From an uncultured Elusimicrobia bacterium (GTDB lineage Bacteria; Elusimicrobiota; Elusimicrobia; UBA1565; UBA9628): DNA of 64,000 bases. Location: contig CAYHPY010000001.1 of NCBI GenBank assembly GCA_964358485.1, positions 81,382 to 145,381 on the forward strand, written 5' to 3'. Below the pieces are notes generated by a model, which ran no database searches, was not told where the DNA came from, and worked only from the letters and a program-made list of their open reading frames with translations. Positions 26,007 to 33,502 of this stretch are shown piece after piece. Position numbers and translations under genes: made by a program. Position 1 is the first letter of the stretch. Each line of letters opens with the position of its first letter.

Positions 26007-26858
26007 TCAGCGCGGAGTCGACGCGCCCATCGCGTCGGCCAAGGAGTCCCCCGCGTAAAGCCTCGGCAAGATCCCGCCCGGCCGTCCGAAATGAGGCGCG
26101 CAGTCGACGGGGGCCCCGGGGCCCGGCAGCACGAACCGCCGTTCTTGGGGGGAATAATACAGGCAGCCCGCTTCCTCCGAAGGGCGGCTCCTCGCGAAGG
26201 CCTCCGCGCCCTCCAACGCTGCCAGCCACTGGGTTTTGAGGGCGGTCGGTTCCACCGGCGCGGCCAGGTGGAGACGCTCGAAATCCACCGGCTGGTAGCG
26301 CCCCCGGCGGCGGATGAGGTCCAGCAGGGAGATCGGGGTAAATCCCGGGTCCTTGCCGACCGCCGCCCAGAGCAGGGCCGGGAAGGGGAGGAGCTCCGCG
26401 TGGGCGTAGAGCACGTCCAGGAAATCCCGAGGCTCGTCGCGGCCGGCCAGCGCCAGGACTTTGTTGACGGCCAGATCCACGGGATGAAGCGCCCAGCCCG
26501 CGCCGGCCAGGCGCACGGCGGGCATGAAACGCCACGCCGAGTCGTGCGCCCATTCGATCTTCACTCCCTGGTCCCCGGCCTCGGCCAGCGCCCGGATGTA
26601 TCCGGGCTGAGCGACTTGGACCGACACCGCGATGCCGTTGTCCTCCAAGACCTTGCGGTCGGCCGCGAAGGCCGTGGCCACCCGCTCCGCGGAATCATGA
26701 AAGTAGTCCAGGTCATTGCTGAAACGCTTGGACTCCGGGCGAAAATGCAGGGCCGCCGCTCCGGCCAGGTGGCTGTCGGGAGTCCGATTTGGGGCCAGCA
26801 AGAGGGAGACCTTCGCTTGAAAAGGAGTTAGCGGCATAAGCGCGCCGCCGTTTCCCAA
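26007..26858 (-). CDS. nucleotidyltransferase, AbiEii/AbiGii-like (DUF1814) putative toxin
   Basis: N-terminal region KVSLLLAPNRTPDSHLAGAAALHF...RFSNDLDYF matches the AbiEii nucleotidyltransferase fold signature (GG.AL...R.S.DLD.F). Confidence 0.65.
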   Translation of the reverse strand: MGNGGALMPLTPFQAKVSLLLAPNRTPDSHLAGAAALHFRPESKRFSNDLDYFHDSAERVATAFAADRKVLEDNGIAVSVQVAQPGYIRALAEAGDQGVKIEWAHDSAWRFMPAVRLAGAGWALHPVDLAVNKVLALAGRDEPRDFLDVLYAHAELLPFPALLWAAVGKDPGFTPISLLDLIRRRGRYQPVDFERLHLAAPVEPTALKTQWLAALEGAEAFARSRPSEEAGCLYYSPQERRFVLPGPGAPVDCAPHFGRPGGILPRLYAGDSLADAMGASTPR

Positions 26859-27094
26859 GCTTGCCGCCCGCCGTGTTTTTTAAGCTGCTCCACCACCCAG
26901 GGGATGTCGGACGCCGTCAGGGGGCGGGCGGGATCGAAGGACCAAAAGCAGGAGGTCTGGAATTTTCGGAAGGCGCGGCGGGCTTCCCGAAGGCGGACCA
27001 TTTCCCTGGCCGTTTCCGGGGGCAGGACGCGGCGGCTCTTGGCGCCCCCACGGCGGCCGATTTCGGATAGGTAGCGGCGAATGGACTGGTCCAT
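26828..27094 (-). CDS. small basic protein, putative cognate partner or antitoxin of the nucleotidyltransferase
   Basis: The 88-aa ORF overlaps the NTase start by 31 bp (a TA-like arrangement) and contains LSEIGRRGGAKSRRVLPPETAREMVRLREARR. It is not a canonical AbiEi. Confidence 0.45.
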   Translation of the reverse strand: MDQSIRRYLSEIGRRGGAKSRRVLPPETAREMVRLREARRAFRKFQTSCFWSFDPARPLTASDIPWVVEQLKKHGGRQAWETAARLCR

Positions 27095-27160: not shown

Positions 27161-28453
27161 TTACAGCATCCGCAGAACGGTATGCTTGGCGGCCACGGAC
27201 CCCAGCCGCAAAATCTCGCGGCGGGCGGCGTCCACCTGGCCGTGCTCGGCCTCATGGGTGGTCAGGACTATGGGCACGCCCCAGCGCGTGCGCTCGGCCG
27301 GCTGGTGGATGGTGGCAATCGAGATCCCGCGCCCGCCCAACGCCTTGGCGATGGACGCCAGCACCCCGGGCTTGTCCTGGGCGTGAAAGCGCAGGTAGAA
27401 CGGGGCCTTGGACTGGGCCACGGCAATCAAGCGCGACGGCCGCCGGTCCAGCTTGCGGGCGGGGATCGAGCCCAAAAGATCGCGGGACAGCATGAACACG
27501 TCGCCCACCACGGCGCTGGCGGCCGGTCCCGGGCCCGCGCCCTTTCCGTAGAACATCAGGTCCCCGGCGGAGGAGGCCCGGACCAAGAGGGCGTTGAACT
27601 CCCGGTGCACCGAGGCCAGCGGATGGGCCAAAGGCACCAAGGTGGGAAACACATGCGCCTCCACCCCCACCGACGCGCCCCAGTCCAGCTTCAAGGAGCC
27701 CAACAGCCGCACGGTGCGGCCCAGCTCCTCCTTGGCGAAGGCCAAATCCGCCTCGTGCAGGTTCTCGATCCCTTCGCGGGCGATCTTCATGGACGGCAAA
27801 GAGGTCCCCGTCAGCAAGGAGGCCAGCACCGAGACCTTGTGCGCGGTGTCGGTGCCATTTAAATCCAAGGTGGGGTCCTTCTCGGCCAAGCCTTTTTCCT
27901 GAGCCTCCTTCAAAGCGGCCTGTAGGGGAATGCCTTCCTGCGCGCGGCTTAAAATGTAGTTCGTGGTCCCGTTCAAAATCCCCGTCACCGCTTCAATCGT
28001 GTTGCCCGCCAGGCCGTTGTCTAAAGCCTCGATGATGGGAATGCCGCCCGCCACGCTGGCCTCGAAATAAAGGCGCGCCCCGCGCCGGGCGGCGGCCTTC
28101 TGCAGTTCGGGCCAGCAATGGGCCAGCAGGCGCTTGTTGGCGGTGACCACATTCATGCCCGACTCCAGGGAGAACAAGACCAGTCGCCGCGCGTCCTCCA
28201 GGCCGCCGATCACCTCCACGATGATGTCGATCCCGGGGTGGCTGACGAGTTGGCGGGGGTCGGTGGTCTGATAGACGTCTTTGCCCAGGCCGAGAGCTTT
28301 GGCCTCTTTCTTGACCTGGCGGTCGCAGACGGCGCCGATAACGATGTCGGCGCCCAGTCGCCGGGAGAATTTCTCTCGATTGGCCTGCAGGAGGCGAATG
28401 GTTTCCCGTCCGACGAAGCCCAGGCCGGCGACGGCCACGTTGATGGTTCTCAC
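27161..28453 (-). CDS. hom: homoserine dehydrogenase with C-terminal ACT domain
   Basis: N-terminal Rossmann VAVAGLGFVGRE, catalytic region LYFEASVAGGIPII and NGTTNYIL, plus a C-terminal ACT domain. Confidence 0.9.
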   Translation of the reverse strand: MRTINVAVAGLGFVGRETIRLLQANREKFSRRLGADIVIGAVCDRQVKKEAKALGLGKDVYQTTDPRQLVSHPGIDIIVEVIGGLEDARRLVLFSLESGMNVVTANKRLLAHCWPELQKAAARRGARLYFEASVAGGIPIIEALDNGLAGNTIEAVTGILNGTTNYILSRAQEGIPLQAALKEAQEKGLAEKDPTLDLNGTDTAHKVSVLASLLTGTSLPSMKIAREGIENLHEADLAFAKEELGRTVRLLGSLKLDWGASVGVEAHVFPTLVPLAHPLASVHREFNALLVRASSAGDLMFYGKGAGPGPAASAVVGDVFMLSRDLLGSIPARKLDRRPSRLIAVAQSKAPFYLRFHAQDKPGVLASIAKALGGRGISIATIHQPAERTRWGVPIVLTTHEAEHGQVDAARREILRLGSVAAKHTVLRML

Positions 28454-28463
28454 GGGAGGGAGT

Positions 28464-30908
28464 TTACTTTTTTTGGGGTGTTATCTTTATGACGATTGGT
28501 AGGCAATCCACGAATTCCGCAACCACGCGGAAGTCATCCTCTCCTGCATTTTCAAGGATGATGGGCTCGAATTCCGGATTGATCGGCGATAATGTAATCC
28601 GGACTCGTTTCCAGGCGCCCTCGTCAGTGACCCCGACCTCGCTCGAGTACTTCTTTACGGTATACCGGCCGTCGTTCTCAGGGTCACAGATCAAGCGGCT
28701 TTCGACTAGGACGATCTTGCCATTCCGGCTCCCACCTCTTTCCCATCGGAAAATGCACCAAGCTCCGTCCGGAATTCTTGGGAGCATTGACCGGCCTTTG
28801 ACGAAGGTAACGAACATGTCTCGATTCAGCCGCCAGCCTGAGGGAACTTCCACCCAGCCAAGGGGGTTTGTTTTTTGCTCCTCGGTGAATTCACCCGCGG
28901 CCACGGCGAGGGAGAAAACCGGGAGGTGCGTGACGTGCTGTGCGGTGAGCGCGATATTGGGCAGGATAAATGGTTCCGGTGCCGGGTTGATCTCAAGCGG
29001 AGGCGTGACGGCGTGACGGGCGGCGTTCGTGAGGTGCTCTTGCAGGTAGGCGCTCAGGTCCGTGTCCTCGCACCATACAAAGCAGCCCTTCCGGCCGCGC
29101 GTCAGCAAAGTTTTATACGTTCCTTTGATGATTTCCTGGACCCGGTCGAGAATCGCCTTTTCCGCCGCCGACTTTCCCTTCGCCGCGAGTAGGTCGGATT
29201 TCCAGCCCTTCAAAGATGAGTCGGTCTTGGCGCGCATTTCGGGGATGCCGACGACCTTCCCATCCTTTAATGAGAGGTCGCCCCCAATTAGGACGCCGAG
29301 CCAGTCGAATTCAAGGCCTTGGCAGGTATGAATGCAGCCGACCTGTCCGATGCCGTCCGGGCTGGTGGCCCAATTTTCCCCATCAAAATTCCATGGAAGC
29401 TTCAACTCATCGGCCGCCACGTGCTTGGTGCCGGCACCGCGCCCGCGTCCCTGCTTTGGCCAATCCCATGAGTAGCCCGCGATGAGGCGCGCCTTGTTGG
29501 CCGCGTTTTTGGCCCTGAGCGCGGCGTAAAGGTCTTCGGCCCTCTCGAAAACGCGAAAATCGTATTCGTTATCCCAGCCCGCGGCGGCCCCAGTTCCTCC
29601 GACTTGAAGAACTTGATCGAGCCAATTTAAATATCCAGTGGAGCCGTTGCAGCGGAACTGGGCCGATAACCGCAAGGGCTCCTGCATCTCGGCGTTAAAC
29701 TTTTTCGCGGCTTTTCTGATCGCCGCCACGGAGCCGATGTCGTTCCAGGAAACCGTTTGGCCCTCATCGATGAAAAATACGCTGACGCGGGCCGCTCGAA
29801 CCATGTCTTCGACCATGCTGTTGCCTTTGTACTGAAACGCCCCTTTCCCTTTGAGGCGATGGGCCTCATCGATTATCAGCACTTCAAATTGCCGGTCCTT
29901 GCGGTAATCGACGTCGTGGAAGGTCCATGAGGAATTCAAAAGTTGACGGCCATCTTCTCGATACCCCCGGTTTCCGCGGGATAATTGCTCTATCAACGTT
30001 TTTCGGAAGGCGGCGTTGGGGGCCACGAAGAATCCCGCCCGCTTTTCCTTTAGAATTTCGGAGAGCAGGCGAATTGCAATGACGGATTTTCCGGTTCCGG
30101 GCCCGCCCTCGATTATGAAGACATGTCGCTTGGTTAAATTCTTTTTGGTGAGGATTTCGTGGCGGACAATTTGAAATGCCTCGTACTGCTCATTGATCAA
30201 GAAGAACTCCGGATTTCCATCCAGCATGCTGCTAACTCGTCCGATCAGTTCGTCGGACGGCCGCATCTTGCCGTTTTCGATAAGGAACATCACATCCCGC
30301 TTGGGTTTCAGCGGAACGACGGTTTCGAGGTATTTTTTCAGTTCTTGGGAATCGTTCGCCAGAAATAGCCGCGAATCTTTCAACAGATCCTTGTACTTGG
30401 GGTCCTCCAAAGGTTCCGGCTTTCGACGATTTAGGTTGAAGAGATAGGCCGCGGCATGGAGGGAAATGGCCGCTTGCCGGACATCTTCGTTGAAGTTCAG
30501 AATCAGCCCTTTGTAGCCCAGCGCCTGGGCGGATGGGTGCTGAGTTATTTTCCCGCCGCCCACGGGAGCCCAGACCATGTCCTCCGGTCCGGCCGCCCTG
30601 GCATCTGCCCACGCCTTAAGTTCAATGATTAGCCCGTTGTCGGTTTTGCCGTCATTGCCGGACAGAAGAACATCCACGCGGAAGCGGCCCGCGGCCGAAA
30701 CATGATACTCGATGGCCACCTGCACCTCATCCTCGACTTGGGCGTTGCCCAAAGCTATTGAAAAGCGCGCGTATTCGTCCGCCCACACTCTCTGATCGCT
30801 GGGGACGCTGCCGGTCTTTTCCCGGAACTTGGTTACAAGCATCGATTGTAGCCGGTTTGCGTTGACATCTTCGAGGAACCCGGCTCTGGACGATTGATAG
30901 ATAATCAT
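28464..30908 (-). CDS. three-domain fusion: PD-(D/E)xK-like nuclease N-domain, DUF2075 (Schlafen-like) ATPase/helicase, and C-terminal LexA/S24-like autopeptidase
   Basis: N-terminus: RFRVDVLL...IIELKAW (D...ELK nuclease-like). Middle: Walker A IIEGGPGTGKSVIA, Walker B VLIIDEAHRL, DUF2075-like core. C-terminus: VAAGEF (LexA Ala-Gly cleavage-site-like), then about 36 aa later GRSMLP (Ser nucleophile, cf. GDSMxP), TVKKY (Lys of the Ser-Lys dyad) and LSPINPEFEPI (LexA C-terminal motif). The ATG overlaps the Fic stop by 4 bp. Confidence 0.75.
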   Translation of the reverse strand: MIIYQSSRAGFLEDVNANRLQSMLVTKFREKTGSVPSDQRVWADEYARFSIALGNAQVEDEVQVAIEYHVSAAGRFRVDVLLSGNDGKTDNGLIIELKAWADARAAGPEDMVWAPVGGGKITQHPSAQALGYKGLILNFNEDVRQAAISLHAAAYLFNLNRRKPEPLEDPKYKDLLKDSRLFLANDSQELKKYLETVVPLKPKRDVMFLIENGKMRPSDELIGRVSSMLDGNPEFFLINEQYEAFQIVRHEILTKKNLTKRHVFIIEGGPGTGKSVIAIRLLSEILKEKRAGFFVAPNAAFRKTLIEQLSRGNRGYREDGRQLLNSSWTFHDVDYRKDRQFEVLIIDEAHRLKGKGAFQYKGNSMVEDMVRAARVSVFFIDEGQTVSWNDIGSVAAIRKAAKKFNAEMQEPLRLSAQFRCNGSTGYLNWLDQVLQVGGTGAAAGWDNEYDFRVFERAEDLYAALRAKNAANKARLIAGYSWDWPKQGRGRGAGTKHVAADELKLPWNFDGENWATSPDGIGQVGCIHTCQGLEFDWLGVLIGGDLSLKDGKVVGIPEMRAKTDSSLKGWKSDLLAAKGKSAAEKAILDRVQEIIKGTYKTLLTRGRKGCFVWCEDTDLSAYLQEHLTNAARHAVTPPLEINPAPEPFILPNIALTAQHVTHLPVFSLAVAAGEFTEEQKTNPLGWVEVPSGWRLNRDMFVTFVKGRSMLPRIPDGAWCIFRWERGGSRNGKIVLVESRLICDPENDGRYTVKKYSSEVGVTDEGAWKRVRITLSPINPEFEPIILENAGEDDFRVVAEFVDCLPIVIKITPQKK

Positions 30909-32011
30909 AATGTTTGTGGCCTCAATGAATAGCTCGTGCTCCGCCCCCCCGCCGCCTCCTTAACCAGTATCCCATGCCCAATCAACCCCACAATATCCCG
31001 CTGCGCCGTATCGTGCGAACATTTCATCAGCAACGCCCACTTCGTCGTCGTCAGCTTCCCCTTGAACTCCCCATCCAACAGCCTATTCAGCATCCCCCGC
31101 TGCCTCTCGTTAAGCGAGAGATGGGCGCAAGTCTTCCAGAACGCCTCCTTCTCCAGGGCGGCCTTTAAAGACGCCTGCGCCCCCAAAATGGCGCGGTCCA
31201 GGCAAGCCAAAAACCAAAGCATCCAGTCGGTGATGTCGAGGGTTCCCTTCCCGGTGGCTTCAAGGATCGCGTAGTAGGCCTTGCGCTCCAGCTGGATTTG
31301 CGCCGACATGCTGTAGCAGCGCCGGGCTCTGTTCTCCGACCGGGCCAGCGCCCAGTCCGCGATGGCGCGGGCGACCCGGCCGTTGCCGTCGTCGAAGGGG
31401 TGGATGTTCACGAACCATAGGTGCGCCTGCGCGGCCCGGAGCAGGGGGTCGAGGTCGCCGGGCCGGTTGGCCCATTGGAAGAAGGCGCTCATTTCCGATT
31501 CCAGGCGCTCCGCCGCCGGCGCCTCGTAGTGGACTTTTTCAAGCCCGATGGCGCCGGACACCACCTGCATGGGGCCCGCGGCGTCGTCGCGCCAGCGGCC
31601 GACTTGCACGCGCTGCGGGGCGATGGGAAACAGCGACCGGTGCCAGTCCAGCAGGCGCTCCTGGGTCAGGGGTTGGGAATAGTTCCGCGTGGCTTCCAGC
31701 GTCATGTCCACCACGCCCTCCACGCGGCGGTCCGCGGGTGTGAGGCCCGCGATGTCTAGCCCCAAGCGGCGGGCGATGGAAGAGCGCACTTGGTCCGGGT
31801 TAAGGAACTCGCCCTCGATCTCGCTGGATTTGACGACGTCCTGGGTGAACGCTTTTAGGACGGCCTCGTTCTGCTGCGAGAAGCCGAGGCTTTCCAGCGA
31901 GCCGATGAGCTGTCCTTGCCTTAGGCGCGCGGCCGCCAGGGGCTGGACCAGGGCTTCCTGGCGCCAGTGGAAATTGGGCCAGTCATCGTGTTCGTGGATG
32001 TATTTGGTCAT
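30905..32011 (-). CDS. fic: Fic/Doc family protein (putative AMPylase) with N-terminal DUF4172-like region and C-terminal wHTH-like region
   Basis: Canonical Fic motif HPFDDGNGRVAR (HPFx[DE]GNGR). 368 aa; the stop overlaps the downstream fusion gene start (ATGA). Confidence 0.85.
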   Translation of the reverse strand: MTKYIHEHDDWPNFHWRQEALVQPLAAARLRQGQLIGSLESLGFSQQNEAVLKAFTQDVVKSSEIEGEFLNPDQVRSSIARRLGLDIAGLTPADRRVEGVVDMTLEATRNYSQPLTQERLLDWHRSLFPIAPQRVQVGRWRDDAAGPMQVVSGAIGLEKVHYEAPAAERLESEMSAFFQWANRPGDLDPLLRAAQAHLWFVNIHPFDDGNGRVARAIADWALARSENRARRCYSMSAQIQLERKAYYAILEATGKGTLDITDWMLWFLACLDRAILGAQASLKAALEKEAFWKTCAHLSLNERQRGMLNRLLDGEFKGKLTTTKWALLMKCSHDTAQRDIVGLIGHGILVKEAAGGRSTSYSLRPQTL

Positions 32012-32174
32012 AATACGCAGACTGTGCGTATATTATAATGCGTAAAGTTAATAATTTCAAGTCTTTATACGCTAAATGTTCGTAGAATAAGCGAATTAAT
32101 CTACGCATGGTGGCTACTTGACGAAATCCCGCCGACCTGCTAAACTTGTTGTGTATAACTAACAACTGTTAGGT
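32012..32174. promoter_or_regulatory. AT-rich divergent promoter/operator region between the fic operon and the MNT/HEPN pair
   Basis: taatacgcagactgtgcgtatattataatgcgtaaag...tacgctaaatg...ctacgcatgg: five tacgc/gcgta half-sites, including the near-palindrome tacgcagac/tgtgcgta. Low GC relative to the flanks. Confidence 0.4.
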
Positions 32175-32804
32175 ATGACTAACGATATCCCCAGCGGCCC
32201 ATCGCTTCCCCAAGAAGACGCCCAAACGCGCGTCCTGAGATTCCTTTGGCGCAGCCGGAGCGAATGGAGCGGCCGGGAGGTCGCCCGCAAGGTGGGCTTG
32301 AGCGCGCCCGCCTGCCACGCGGCCCTCAAGAAGCTCGACGCCAGGGGGCTGGTTCTTTTCAGGCGCGTCTCGAACGTGCATCTATACCAGATTAACCCCG
32401 AGAACTATCTGGTCCAGAAGATCTTCGCGCGCCAATTCGAGGCCGAGGCGGCCATGCCCAAGGAGGTCGCCGCCCTGGTGGTGAAGTCCCTGGTCGATTC
32501 CCCCAAGACCGCCATCCAGGCCATCGTGCTTTTCGGCAGTATGGCGCGGGGCACGGGGCGCATCGGCAGCGACCTGGACCTCCTGGTTGTCCTTGCGGAG
32601 AAGGAAGGCGCCACGGCTCTGGAGCCGCGAATTGAGCGGCTAAGGGAACTGCTGTTCAAGCGCTTCAGCGTCCCTTTGTCGCCCTACATCCAAACCTTGT
32701 CCGAACTGAGGGAAAAGCACCAACAAAAGCTGCCGTTGATCGGAGAGATTCTTAAAGACGGACGGACCATTTACGGCCAAGAAATCAAGGAGTTGCTGCC
32801 ATGA
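32175..32804 (+). CDS. minimal nucleotidyltransferase (MNT/MntA-like) with N-terminal wHTH, putative antitoxin
   Basis: Pol-beta-type NTase motif LFGSMARGTGRIGSDLDLLVV, and an N-terminal wHTH (SGREVARKVGLSAPACHAALKKLDARGLV). Confidence 0.75.
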   Translation: MTNDIPSGPSLPQEDAQTRVLRFLWRSRSEWSGREVARKVGLSAPACHAALKKLDARGLVLFRRVSNVHLYQINPENYLVQKIFARQFEAEAAMPKEVAALVVKSLVDSPKTAIQAIVLFGSMARGTGRIGSDLDLLVVLAEKEGATALEPRIERLRELLFKRFSVPLSPYIQTLSELREKHQQKLPLIGEILKDGRTIYGQEIKELLP

Positions 32805-33208
32805 CCCCGAAGAAGCTCAAGACGCGCTCGGTGTCGCGTGAGCGCCATTCGACCTATCTCAAGAAGGCGATGGAGTTCCTGCGGGCCGCGGAGTCGTCGA
32901 TGAAAATAGGCGATTGGGACGCCGTGGGACTCAACGCGGTCCACTCGGCGATCTCCGCCGCGGACGCGGTTCTGGTCTATTACGGCGGCGTTCGCTCTGC
33001 CGGCGATTCCCATCATGACGTGGCCGGCCTTTTGCGCCAGCACATCAAGGATGACCAGCTCGGTTCTAAAATACAGACGCTCTCCAAGGTGCTTGGCTAT
33101 AAAAACTTGGCCGCCTATGAGGATCGGGAAGTCACGGAGGCCGAGGGCCGGGACGCGGAGAAGCTGGCGCGGCGGTTTTTGGATTGGGCTCAGTCGCGCT
33201 TGGCGTGA
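32801..33208 (+). CDS. HEPN domain protein (HepT-like putative toxin)
   Basis: The 135-aa ORF overlaps the MNT stop by 4 bp and contains an R-x4-6-H HEPN motif (RSAGDSHHD). Confidence 0.7.
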   Translation: MTPKKLKTRSVSRERHSTYLKKAMEFLRAAESSMKIGDWDAVGLNAVHSAISAADAVLVYYGGVRSAGDSHHDVAGLLRQHIKDDQLGSKIQTLSKVLGYKNLAAYEDREVTEAEGRDAEKLARRFLDWAQSRLA

Positions 33209-33285
33209 GCCCTGGGGCTTCTCCTCCGGGCGGCATCTTTCCCGATGACCGGCAGTTGACGGTTATTTATCGTGGGCTTAATTGC

Positions 33286-33330
33286 GAGTTGGCTATTTAA
33301 CTTTAGTGATCTAAAGTTAAATAGCGGGAA
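33286..33330. promoter_or_regulatory. perfect 14-bp-arm palindrome in a 295-bp AT-rich spacer
   Basis: ctatttaactttag tgatc taaagttaaatag, within the non-coding region 33209-33502 upstream of the gene at 33503. Confidence 0.35.
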
Positions 33331-33502
33331 TGGCCTTAAAGAAGGCGATTTATTAATTCCATATTGGGTCTCAAAATGGAGTTATTGATTCCAAATTGAC
33401 ATTATCCCCGGCAAACCCACCTGGGCTCGGCCCCCCTCTCCCGCGGCCCTTTCCCGAAATACTCCAGTAATCATTAAGGATCATAATGAATAGCCTCCTC
33501 CC

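Follow-up and report, generated by a model that had tools for sequence, protein, structure and literature searches.

A LexA-type S24 peptidase tail on a nuclease-helicase of an uncultured Elusimicrobia bacterium: a candidate self-cleaving off switch

An uncultured Elusimicrobia bacterium (GenBank assembly GCA_964358485.1; GTDB lineage Bacteria, Elusimicrobiota, Elusimicrobia, UBA1565, UBA9628) encodes, on the minus strand of contig CAYHPY010000001.1, an 814-residue protein in which a nuclease-helicase is followed by a C-terminal domain of the LexA/CI/UmuD type. The stretch analysed, hereafter the window, comprises 64,000 nucleotides of that contig (positions 81,382 to 145,381), and all coordinates given below for the gene and its neighbours are counted from its first letter. 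Here, I show that the C-terminal domain belongs to Peptidase S24, as judged from its family-model score, its fold, its in-register Ser/Lys pair and its internal Ala-Gly, and that the same subtype of domain closes many other enzymes acting on DNA. The reading favoured here, with a probability of roughly 0.4 for the whole of it, is that the domain is a functional autoprotease tail, that it would be triggered by RecA filaments formed on single-stranded DNA (ssDNA), the activated state written RecA*, and that it would serve as an OFF switch for the enzyme in front of it.

The assignment to S24 is virtually certain. Pfam Peptidase_S24 (PF00717) matches residues 663-799 with an E-value of 7.5e-10 and 39 bits (cut-off 23.3), covering 115 of the 116 profile positions. 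Single-sequence searches of the PDB with phmmer returned no matches for either the C-terminal domain or the whole protein, and a profile was needed; that of 30 homologous C-terminal domains matched almost exclusively LexA and UmuD chains, its fullest alignment placing LP-x-x-x-x-AAG, G-x-S-M and T-V-K opposite residues 76-85, 117-120 and 154-156 of Escherichia coli LexA. By BLASTP the domain aligns with LexA over 119 residues at only 29% identity, with A84-G85, S119 and K156 all included, and with lambda CI (sequence from NC_001416) over 131 residues at 27%. When modelled by AlphaFold, the domain has a predicted local distance difference test score (pLDDT) of 88 and retrieves only LexA, lambda CI and UmuD' among its top 34 Foldseek matches, signal peptidases coming next; the best values are a probability of 1.0, E-values down to 7e-6 and a target-normalised template modelling (TM) score of up to 0.74. 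Residues 674-679, the loop after the predicted scissile bond, drop below a pLDDT of 50, as for a mobile cleavage loop. A chance match of short motifs is ruled out by the E-values, the fold and the conservation described below.

A preliminary description of this DNA, made from the letters alone, had read a LexA-type Ala-Gly site and Ser/Lys dyad in the C-terminal peptide. That peptide is the exact minus-strand translation of 28464..28900, the 3' end of an intact open reading frame (ORF) of 814 codons, and its codons were re-checked. The motifs lie at residues 669-674 (VAAGEF), 705-710 (GRSMLP), 750-754 (TVKKY) and 773-783 (LSPINPEFEPI), and the proposed register with LexA is borne out, site, Ser and Lys each being aligned with their LexA counterparts by both the profile and BLASTP. 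The accompanying statement that the spacing is nearly the same stands for the first interval only: from Ala-Gly to Ser there are 35 residues (34 in LexA), but from Ser to Lys there are 45 (37 in LexA), and from Lys to the proline of LxPxN 23 (13 in LexA). Two insertions peculiar to the family, one of 8 residues and one of 10, account for the differences. Residues 742-758 and 766-768 carry the near-invariant D742-P-E-x-G-G, S756, K758, W766 and H768, which, like the near-invariant W685 and Y754, are absent from LexA; possibly the insertions provide a second sensor or a docking surface.

Beyond fold and catalytic motifs, E. coli LexA (MEROPS S24; PDB 1JHE/1JHF, 3JSO, 8TRG) shares with the domain the L-x-P-x-N-x-E-F-x-P-I strand and the V-A-A at P3-P1, which is identical to the latent ClpX degron of LexA. 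Lambda CI (PDB 2HO0/2HNF, 3BDN) is closer than LexA around the site, where YPVFS-HVQAG-MF faces LPVFSLAVAAG-EF and a conserved Trp follows; it too has a long linker, and it takes ranks 3-4 in Foldseek. What sets the Elusimicrobia protein apart from both is the partner. In LexA the peptidase is joined to a winged helix, whereas here it is joined through a linker of about 40 residues to a nuclease-helicase of 660 residues; CI is a transcription factor whose cleavage ends repression, whereas here the attached part is an enzyme. The N-terminal 660 residues consist of a nuclease and a superfamily 1B (SF1B) helicase, Pfam and Foldseek finding no helix-turn-helix (HTH) there, and for want of a DNA-binding domain of that kind the protein is not a LexA/CI repressor.

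The preliminary description had spoken of an ATPase/nuclease body, and this holds: Walker A and Walker B are present, and the nuclease residues E67, D79, E96, L97 and K98 are invariant in an alignment of 55 homologues. SLFN-g3_helicase (PF09848) matches residues 261-615 with an E-value of 3.2e-85, over profile positions 1-354 of 354. Residues 1-240 have no Pfam match, and their assignment as a nuclease comes from the motif alone. The full-length AlphaFold model (pLDDT 85.7) matches the SF1B helicases RecD, RecD2, human SLFN11, Upf1 and Dda in Foldseek; a profile of the full-length protein searched against the PDB gave generic P-loop matches only. The linker is poorly conserved, and its residues 633-642 fall below a pLDDT of 50. 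The body is thus a member of the DUF2075/Schlafen-group-3 helicases with an Nhi-like architecture. As in Nhi and Nhi-like proteins (Bari et al.; Millman et al. 2022), an N-terminal nuclease and a DUF2075 helicase (PF09848) share one polypeptide, and the gene shares its low-GC islet with genes of SoFic-like and MNT/HEPN type, its defence role being putative. PADLOC gives weak partial matches to AbiO, Nhi and PDC-S41; none of the Nhi or AbiO models is matched over its full length, the partial matches having E-values of about 1e-10 over residues 234-421. Described Nhi proteins, unlike this one, lack an S24 domain, and the present clade usually has a MazG-like partner.

The predicted site lies between body and peptidase, and cleavage there would therefore detach a fragment of about 16 kDa (G672-K814) from a nuclease-helicase of about 76 kDa (residues 1-671). 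The earlier claim that the peptidase domain would be severed is accordingly sustained as far as predicted competence goes, the catalytic residues being intact and conserved.

Conservation was followed in a search of 5.8 billion proteins, which returned 1902 matches, architecture and conservation being taken from the best 120. Among these, 88 are fused (750-850 residues) and 32 are without S24 (627-666 residues). Across 89 fused sequences, S707, M708 and K752 are each kept in 88, A671 in 88, A670 in 87 and G672 in 75, with Ser replacing it in 12. Identity among members is about 40% in the S24 domain and about 60% in the body, and nonetheless site, Ser and Lys are kept; there is strong purifying conservation on exactly these residues. 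A populous fused subclade (P0054, P0065-P0067, P0073, P0074, P0084 and related sequences, in clusters of 92-201 sequences) has Ala-Ser in place of Ala-Gly, and it scores below the precomputed Pfam threshold for S24. The relatives without S24 have bodies 60-67% identical to that of the window protein and end at about query position 625-660, just before the first S24 strand, that is, inside the linker or a few residues ahead of it. Since such homologues occur, in some cases with the same MazG-like gene beside them, the body is presumably active and tolerated without the module.

The profile of 30 domains was also scored against 1.84 billion cluster representatives, yielding 2583 matches at E<=1e-3, 1684 at E<=1e-10 and 605 at E<=1e-30. 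The carriers were analysed in the best 150 matches (179-251 bits; 144 to 1969 residues long), with counts given per 149. In 141, the end of the module lies no more than 15 residues from the C-terminus, and only seven carry an HTH, the classical repressor architecture. By Pfam, its partners are DUF2075 helicases (21 carriers), ResIII (13), accompanied by SWI2/SNF2, and Type_ISP_C (12), accompanied by Eco57I, N6_Mtase and MmeI methylase domains; giants of 1878-1969 residues combine DEAD, Helicase_C and MZB, one of them with a REase domain. Further carriers contain HsdR C-terminal, HSDR_N, RE_AlwI, RE_LlaJI, RE_endonuc, Mrr_cat, DpnI_C, PLDc_2, DUF3427, SLFN_AlbA_2 and nSTAND3 domains. The catalytic Ser and Lys (profile S67 and K112) are each kept in 148 carriers, and the tetrapeptide at the site is AAA|G in 84, AAC|G in 23, VAA|G in 16, IAA|G in seven and LAA|G in three, a few having Thr or Ser after the bond. 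Hence P1 is Ala in 124 and Cys in 23, P1' is Gly in 136, and P3-P1 reads AAA, VAA, IAA or LAA in 110. Ala-Gly and Cys-Gly are the known cleavage pairs of LexA/CI and UmuD, and the restriction of P1 to Ala or Cys before Gly therefore speaks, as an independent line of evidence, for the site being a substrate. The module can be described as a portable C-terminal regulatory cassette found on many DNA-targeting restriction and defence enzymes.

On the favoured reading, S707 and K752 would cut their own chain at A671-G672 and thereby free the S24 domain from the PD-(D/E)xK nuclease and SF1B helicase; self-cleavage at this bond is, by analogy with the family, probable. Judging from S24 relatives, cleavage would be favoured by keeping the cleavage loop in the active site, and filaments of RecA on ssDNA, with which the cell itself signals DNA damage and recombination, would stabilise the cleavable conformation as they do in LexA and CI. 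For RecA* or DNA damage as the trigger, an argument by analogy too, the odds appear about even. In LexA, F203 of RecA enters a pocket formed by V79, V82, F111, L113, V146 and V153 (Cory et al.); the counterparts here are F665, V669, F699 (invariant), T701, L734 and Y749, all hydrophobic or small. Since these positions also belong to the core of the domain, the match is compatible with RecA binding but not diagnostic of it.

As to the consequence, cleavage would remove what is, by analogy with LexA, probably a dimerisation domain, and would leave a body ending in ...L-A-V-A-A-COOH, which resembles the latent ClpX degron of LexA(1-84). In LexA-like proteins, a ClpXP C-degron is generally located directly beside the cleavage site (PMC5742171, citing Neher et al. 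2003). The switch would then amount to a built-in restriction alleviation, protecting the host's damaged, recombining or unmodified DNA against a nuclease-helicase that lacks self-marking by methylation. Given that cleavage occurs, OFF is somewhat preferred to ON, for four reasons. Most carriers are restriction or restriction-modification (R-M) enzymes, which must act at DNA entry and some of which also methylate. Homologues without S24 are common, some with a MazG-like partner, so the body is tolerated without an inhibitor. The new V-A-A-COOH end equals that of LexA(1-84), which is destroyed after cleavage by virtue of its latent ClpX degron, and in the 110 carriers counted above the new end would be AAA, VAA, IAA or LAA. 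Finally, it is established that cells need proteolytic restriction alleviation when their DNA has been damaged, has recombined or is hypomethylated: in E. coli, ClpXP acts on HsdR for this purpose (PMC4231737, PMC11109961), and in Pseudomonas aeruginosa HsdR is inactivated in a Lon-dependent manner, by Lon-like proteases. The EcoKI and P. aeruginosa cases are like the favoured model in that a DNA-translocating nuclease targeting host DNA is shut off by proteolysis; they differ in that a separate protease reads stalled complexes, while here the first proteolytic step would be intrinsic to the enzyme. The extension to all carriers, namely that the recurrent cassette is a RecA*-sensing self-destruct switch whose tail is cut off, exposing an Ala-Ala-COOH degron by which the enzyme is cleared, is put forward as a tentative and rather doubtful generalisation.

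The opposite direction, proposed in the preliminary description, would have the S24 domain hold the nuclease-helicase inactive until RecA*-stimulated or intrinsic cleavage, upon damage or infection, frees an active effector. It draws on the same evidence of cleavage competence, and the product 1-671 would be nearly coterminal with the natural S24-less homologues, presumably active enzymes. There is also a precedent for activation in the conversion of UmuD to UmuD', in which S24 self-cleavage alters an activity other than repression and in which the Cys-Gly pair of 23 carriers finds a parallel; UmuD, however, loses an N-terminal arm of 24 residues to become active and has no fused enzyme, while here the S24 domain itself is the released piece. 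Human SLFN11 is a eukaryotic relative with a homologous DUF2075 helicase (PF09848; Foldseek match 7ZEP), and its biology is tied to DNA damage, to which it responds (PMC6765204), and to replication stress; since it has another N-terminal nuclease, no S24 and other regulation, the parallel is conceptual only. Against activation stands the company the module keeps: it is also found on Type I/III-like translocases, on MmeI-like and Type ISP/PglX-like R-M fusions and on Mrr, AlwI and LlaJI nucleases. For enzymes that are needed when DNA enters, and some of which methylate constitutively, waiting for RecA* would be self-defeating, and the S24-less homologues with the same partner gene indicate that the body needs no inhibitor. 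I therefore consider an ON switch rather unlikely.

Several points weigh against the favoured reading of an OFF switch, and some of them lead to the two remaining explanations. Cleavage, trigger and consequence are all inferred. UmuD illustrates that cleavage can activate. The 23 carriers with Cys at P1 would end in ...AAC, a poorer ClpX motif, and the small residues at P1-P3 may reflect a requirement of the active site instead of a degron. The window holds no recA, lexA or clpX gene within its 64 kb. Of the 32 positions most conserved in the module, 30 are unchanged in the window protein; the exceptions are K758 (Val) and H768 (Arg), a pair of changes shared, among the 89 sequences, only with an identical database twin; the module in the window could therefore behave atypically. 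The two identical proteins also carry E709 to L and G746 to D.

Other objections concern the trigger. RecA-independent autocleavage of a LexA-like protein exists in IrvR (PMC7101444), and steric bulk N-terminal of the LexA site impedes its entry into the RecA groove (Cory et al.), so that the 670-residue body might hinder access, although the 40-residue linker could compensate. Self-cleavage might thus be set off by a slow intrinsic timer, by the state of the attached motor (when it stalls in translocation or binds DNA, for example), by a phage factor or by some other stress. The two insertions, whose near-invariant residues LexA lacks, could form a different sensor surface, and ClpXP-based alleviation senses long-lived translocation states and not RecA directly (PMC4231737). 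Yet every carrier has DNA as its target, as would suit a signal of DNA damage or of ssDNA, and the counterparts of the F203 pocket, with F699 invariant, point the same way, if weakly given their place in the core. Such a RecA-independent trigger is judged a little less likely still than an ON switch.

A last set of objections concerns cleavage itself. About 8-13% of family members have Ser or Thr at P1', and the G85D variant of LexA is non-cleavable. One may then suppose that no regulatory self-cleavage takes place and that the S24 domain is a dimerisation module, a docking module for RecA filaments or a protease acting in trans, the Ala-Gly being structural. The C-terminal domain of LexA does double as its dimerisation domain, and besides the minority of carriers with another P1' residue the departures of the window protein at two subtype-specific positions would agree with this. 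However, Ser, Lys and the Ala/Cys-Gly pair are jointly kept in about 90-99% of 149 diverse carriers, which is hard to explain without catalysis on the site, and the distance from site to Ser is LexA-like. A tail that does not cleave is consequently deemed improbable.

The coordinates of the gene, of its parts and of its neighbours are collected in Table 1. The start giving 814 residues is taken as the true one, as the N-terminus MIIY... is kept in homologues; the public gene call of an identical protein (P0001) begins later and gives 752 residues. NCBIfam has no model matching the 814-residue protein.

Table 1. Features of the nuclease-helicase-S24 gene and its surroundings in the window, and MazG-like genes at homologous loci
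Feature	Position (nt)	Strand	Basis or remark
Whole gene: nuclease / DUF2075 (Schlafen group 3) helicase / Peptidase_S24 fusion, 814 aa	28464..30908	-	ORF, Pfam
N-terminal PD-(D/E)xK nuclease-motif domain, aa 1-240	30189..30908	-	motif E67, D79, E96-L97-K98
PD-(D/E)xK motif core	30615-30674	-	invariant residues, codons checked
SF1B helicase/ATPase core, aa 261-615	29064..30128	-	Pfam PF09848
Walker A GPGTGKS, aa 269-275	30084-30104	-	codons checked
Walker B IIDEAH, aa 345-350		-	codons checked
Flexible linker, helicase to S24, aa 626-662	28923..29033	-	model, alignment
Peptidase_S24 (LexA/CI/UmuD-type) domain, aa 663-803	28500..28922	-	Pfam, profile, fold, BLASTP
Predicted scissile bond A671-G672, in L-A-V-A-A|G-E-F	28893-28898	-	aligns to LexA A84-G85
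Predicted nucleophile S707, in G-R-S-M	28788-28790	-	aligns to LexA S119
Predicted general base K752, in Y-T-V-K-K-Y	28653-28655	-	aligns to LexA K156
Insertion residues 742-758	28635-28685	-
Insertion residues 766-768	28605-28612	-
DUF4172-Fic gene, SoFic-like	30905..32011	-	Pfam, PADLOC; motif HPFDDGNGRVAR intact at 31367-31402
Homoserine dehydrogenase	27161..28453	-	neighbour; GTG start 10 nt after stop codon of the S24 gene
MNT/HEPN pair	32175-32804 and 32801-33208	+	neighbour
MazG-like gene, L001	5648-5998
MazG-like gene, L003	5648-5998
MazG-like gene, L005	5426-5782
MazG-like gene, L006	7654-7992
MazG-like gene, L007	3-317
MazG-like gene, L009-L011	3469-3873
MazG-like gene, L013/L014	4639-5004
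MazG-like gene, L016	7578-7892

The gene lies in an islet of low GC content (28400-33500; 52-60% against 65-70% in the flanks) that also holds fic and the MNT/HEPN pair and looks like a small, horizontally acquired islet of defence and toxin-antitoxin genes. The fic gene (Pfam DUF4172 4e-33 and Fic 3.5e-18; PADLOC SoFic 3.2e-40) is upstream of the nuclease-helicase gene and translationally coupled to it, its stop codon being overlapped by the ATG of the latter (ATGA). Fic as a functional partner was considered and ruled out, none of 13 homologous loci carrying fic and 11 of them carrying a MazG-like gene. In the window, fic occupies the position that the MazG-like gene has in homologues; this could be a partner swap or two single-gene defence systems stacked in one operon. 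A sigma-70-like promoter (TTGAAA-17-TATAAT, 32060-32032, minus strand, 11 of 12 matches) precedes fic. The stretch separating its -10 element from the start of fic contains a perfect inverted repeat with arms of 7 nt (ATACGCA-N5-TGCGTAT, 32016-32034), a candidate operator of the operon. No SOS-box-like operator was found upstream of the operon, this sole repeat being unlike the E. coli LexA box. Beyond the homoserine dehydrogenase gene, two overlapping ORFs on the minus strand (26007-26858, 283 residues; 26828-27094, 88 residues) have no Pfam match at E<=1e-3 and are arranged like a toxin-antitoxin pair.

The MazG-like gene (PF12643; about 116-134 residues) is upstream in the 11 loci and immediately so in eight; in L009-L011 a toxin-antitoxin cassette is inserted between it and the nuclease-helicase gene. 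It is present with or without an S24 tail, and a JGI locus is arranged likewise, whereas the window contains no MazG-like sequence. This suggests an undescribed two-gene system of a MazG-like nucleoside triphosphate (NTP) pyrophosphatase and a nuclease-helicase; in the searchable literature no paper on a DUF2075 and MazG pairing was found. A locus search with the single protein gave three genome loci, and the plasmid collection gave one match, in Halomonas sp. PA16-9 (NZ_CP040452.1; L016 4962-7432), the only strain among the matches that is cultured and completely sequenced. Its body is 37% and its S24 domain 45% identical, with AAG, Ser and Lys intact, and a MazG-like gene lies just downstream. 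There, body and S24 are encoded in separate frames with an overlap of about 70 nt, in a region unannotated in the PLSDB table; either the protein is naturally split in this strain, or a frameshift or sequencing error accounts for the arrangement.

To my knowledge, and in the literature consulted on the LexA-like superfamily, work on S24 autoproteases has treated them as switches of transcription factors, namely LexA and phage repressors, and of UmuD. No description of a DUF2075-S24 fusion, or of S24 tails on restriction or defence enzymes, was found in the searchable literature, most subscription journals being outside its coverage. The automatic label given by JGI to one homologue, 'DUF2075 family protein/phage repressor protein C with HTH and peptidase S24 domain', means that the co-occurrence of DUF2075 and S24 is already visible in databases. 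What emerges from the present analysis is a putative autoprotease switch of a type familiar from transcription factors but attached here to enzymes.

Were S24 domains to gate enzymes directly as well, the SOS signal would control defence nucleases and restriction enzymes at the post-translational level. Should the ON model hold instead, the protein would be the first RecA*-activated defence effector. The prediction covers hundreds of protein families' worth of sequences, and engineering would gain a degron or cleavage module that is compact, portable and responsive to damage. If true, it would offer a simple answer to the long-standing question of how DNA-cutting immune enzymes spare the host chromosome during repair and recombination, namely an enzyme-intrinsic, SOS-coupled restriction alleviation that would control autoimmunity across many defence families.

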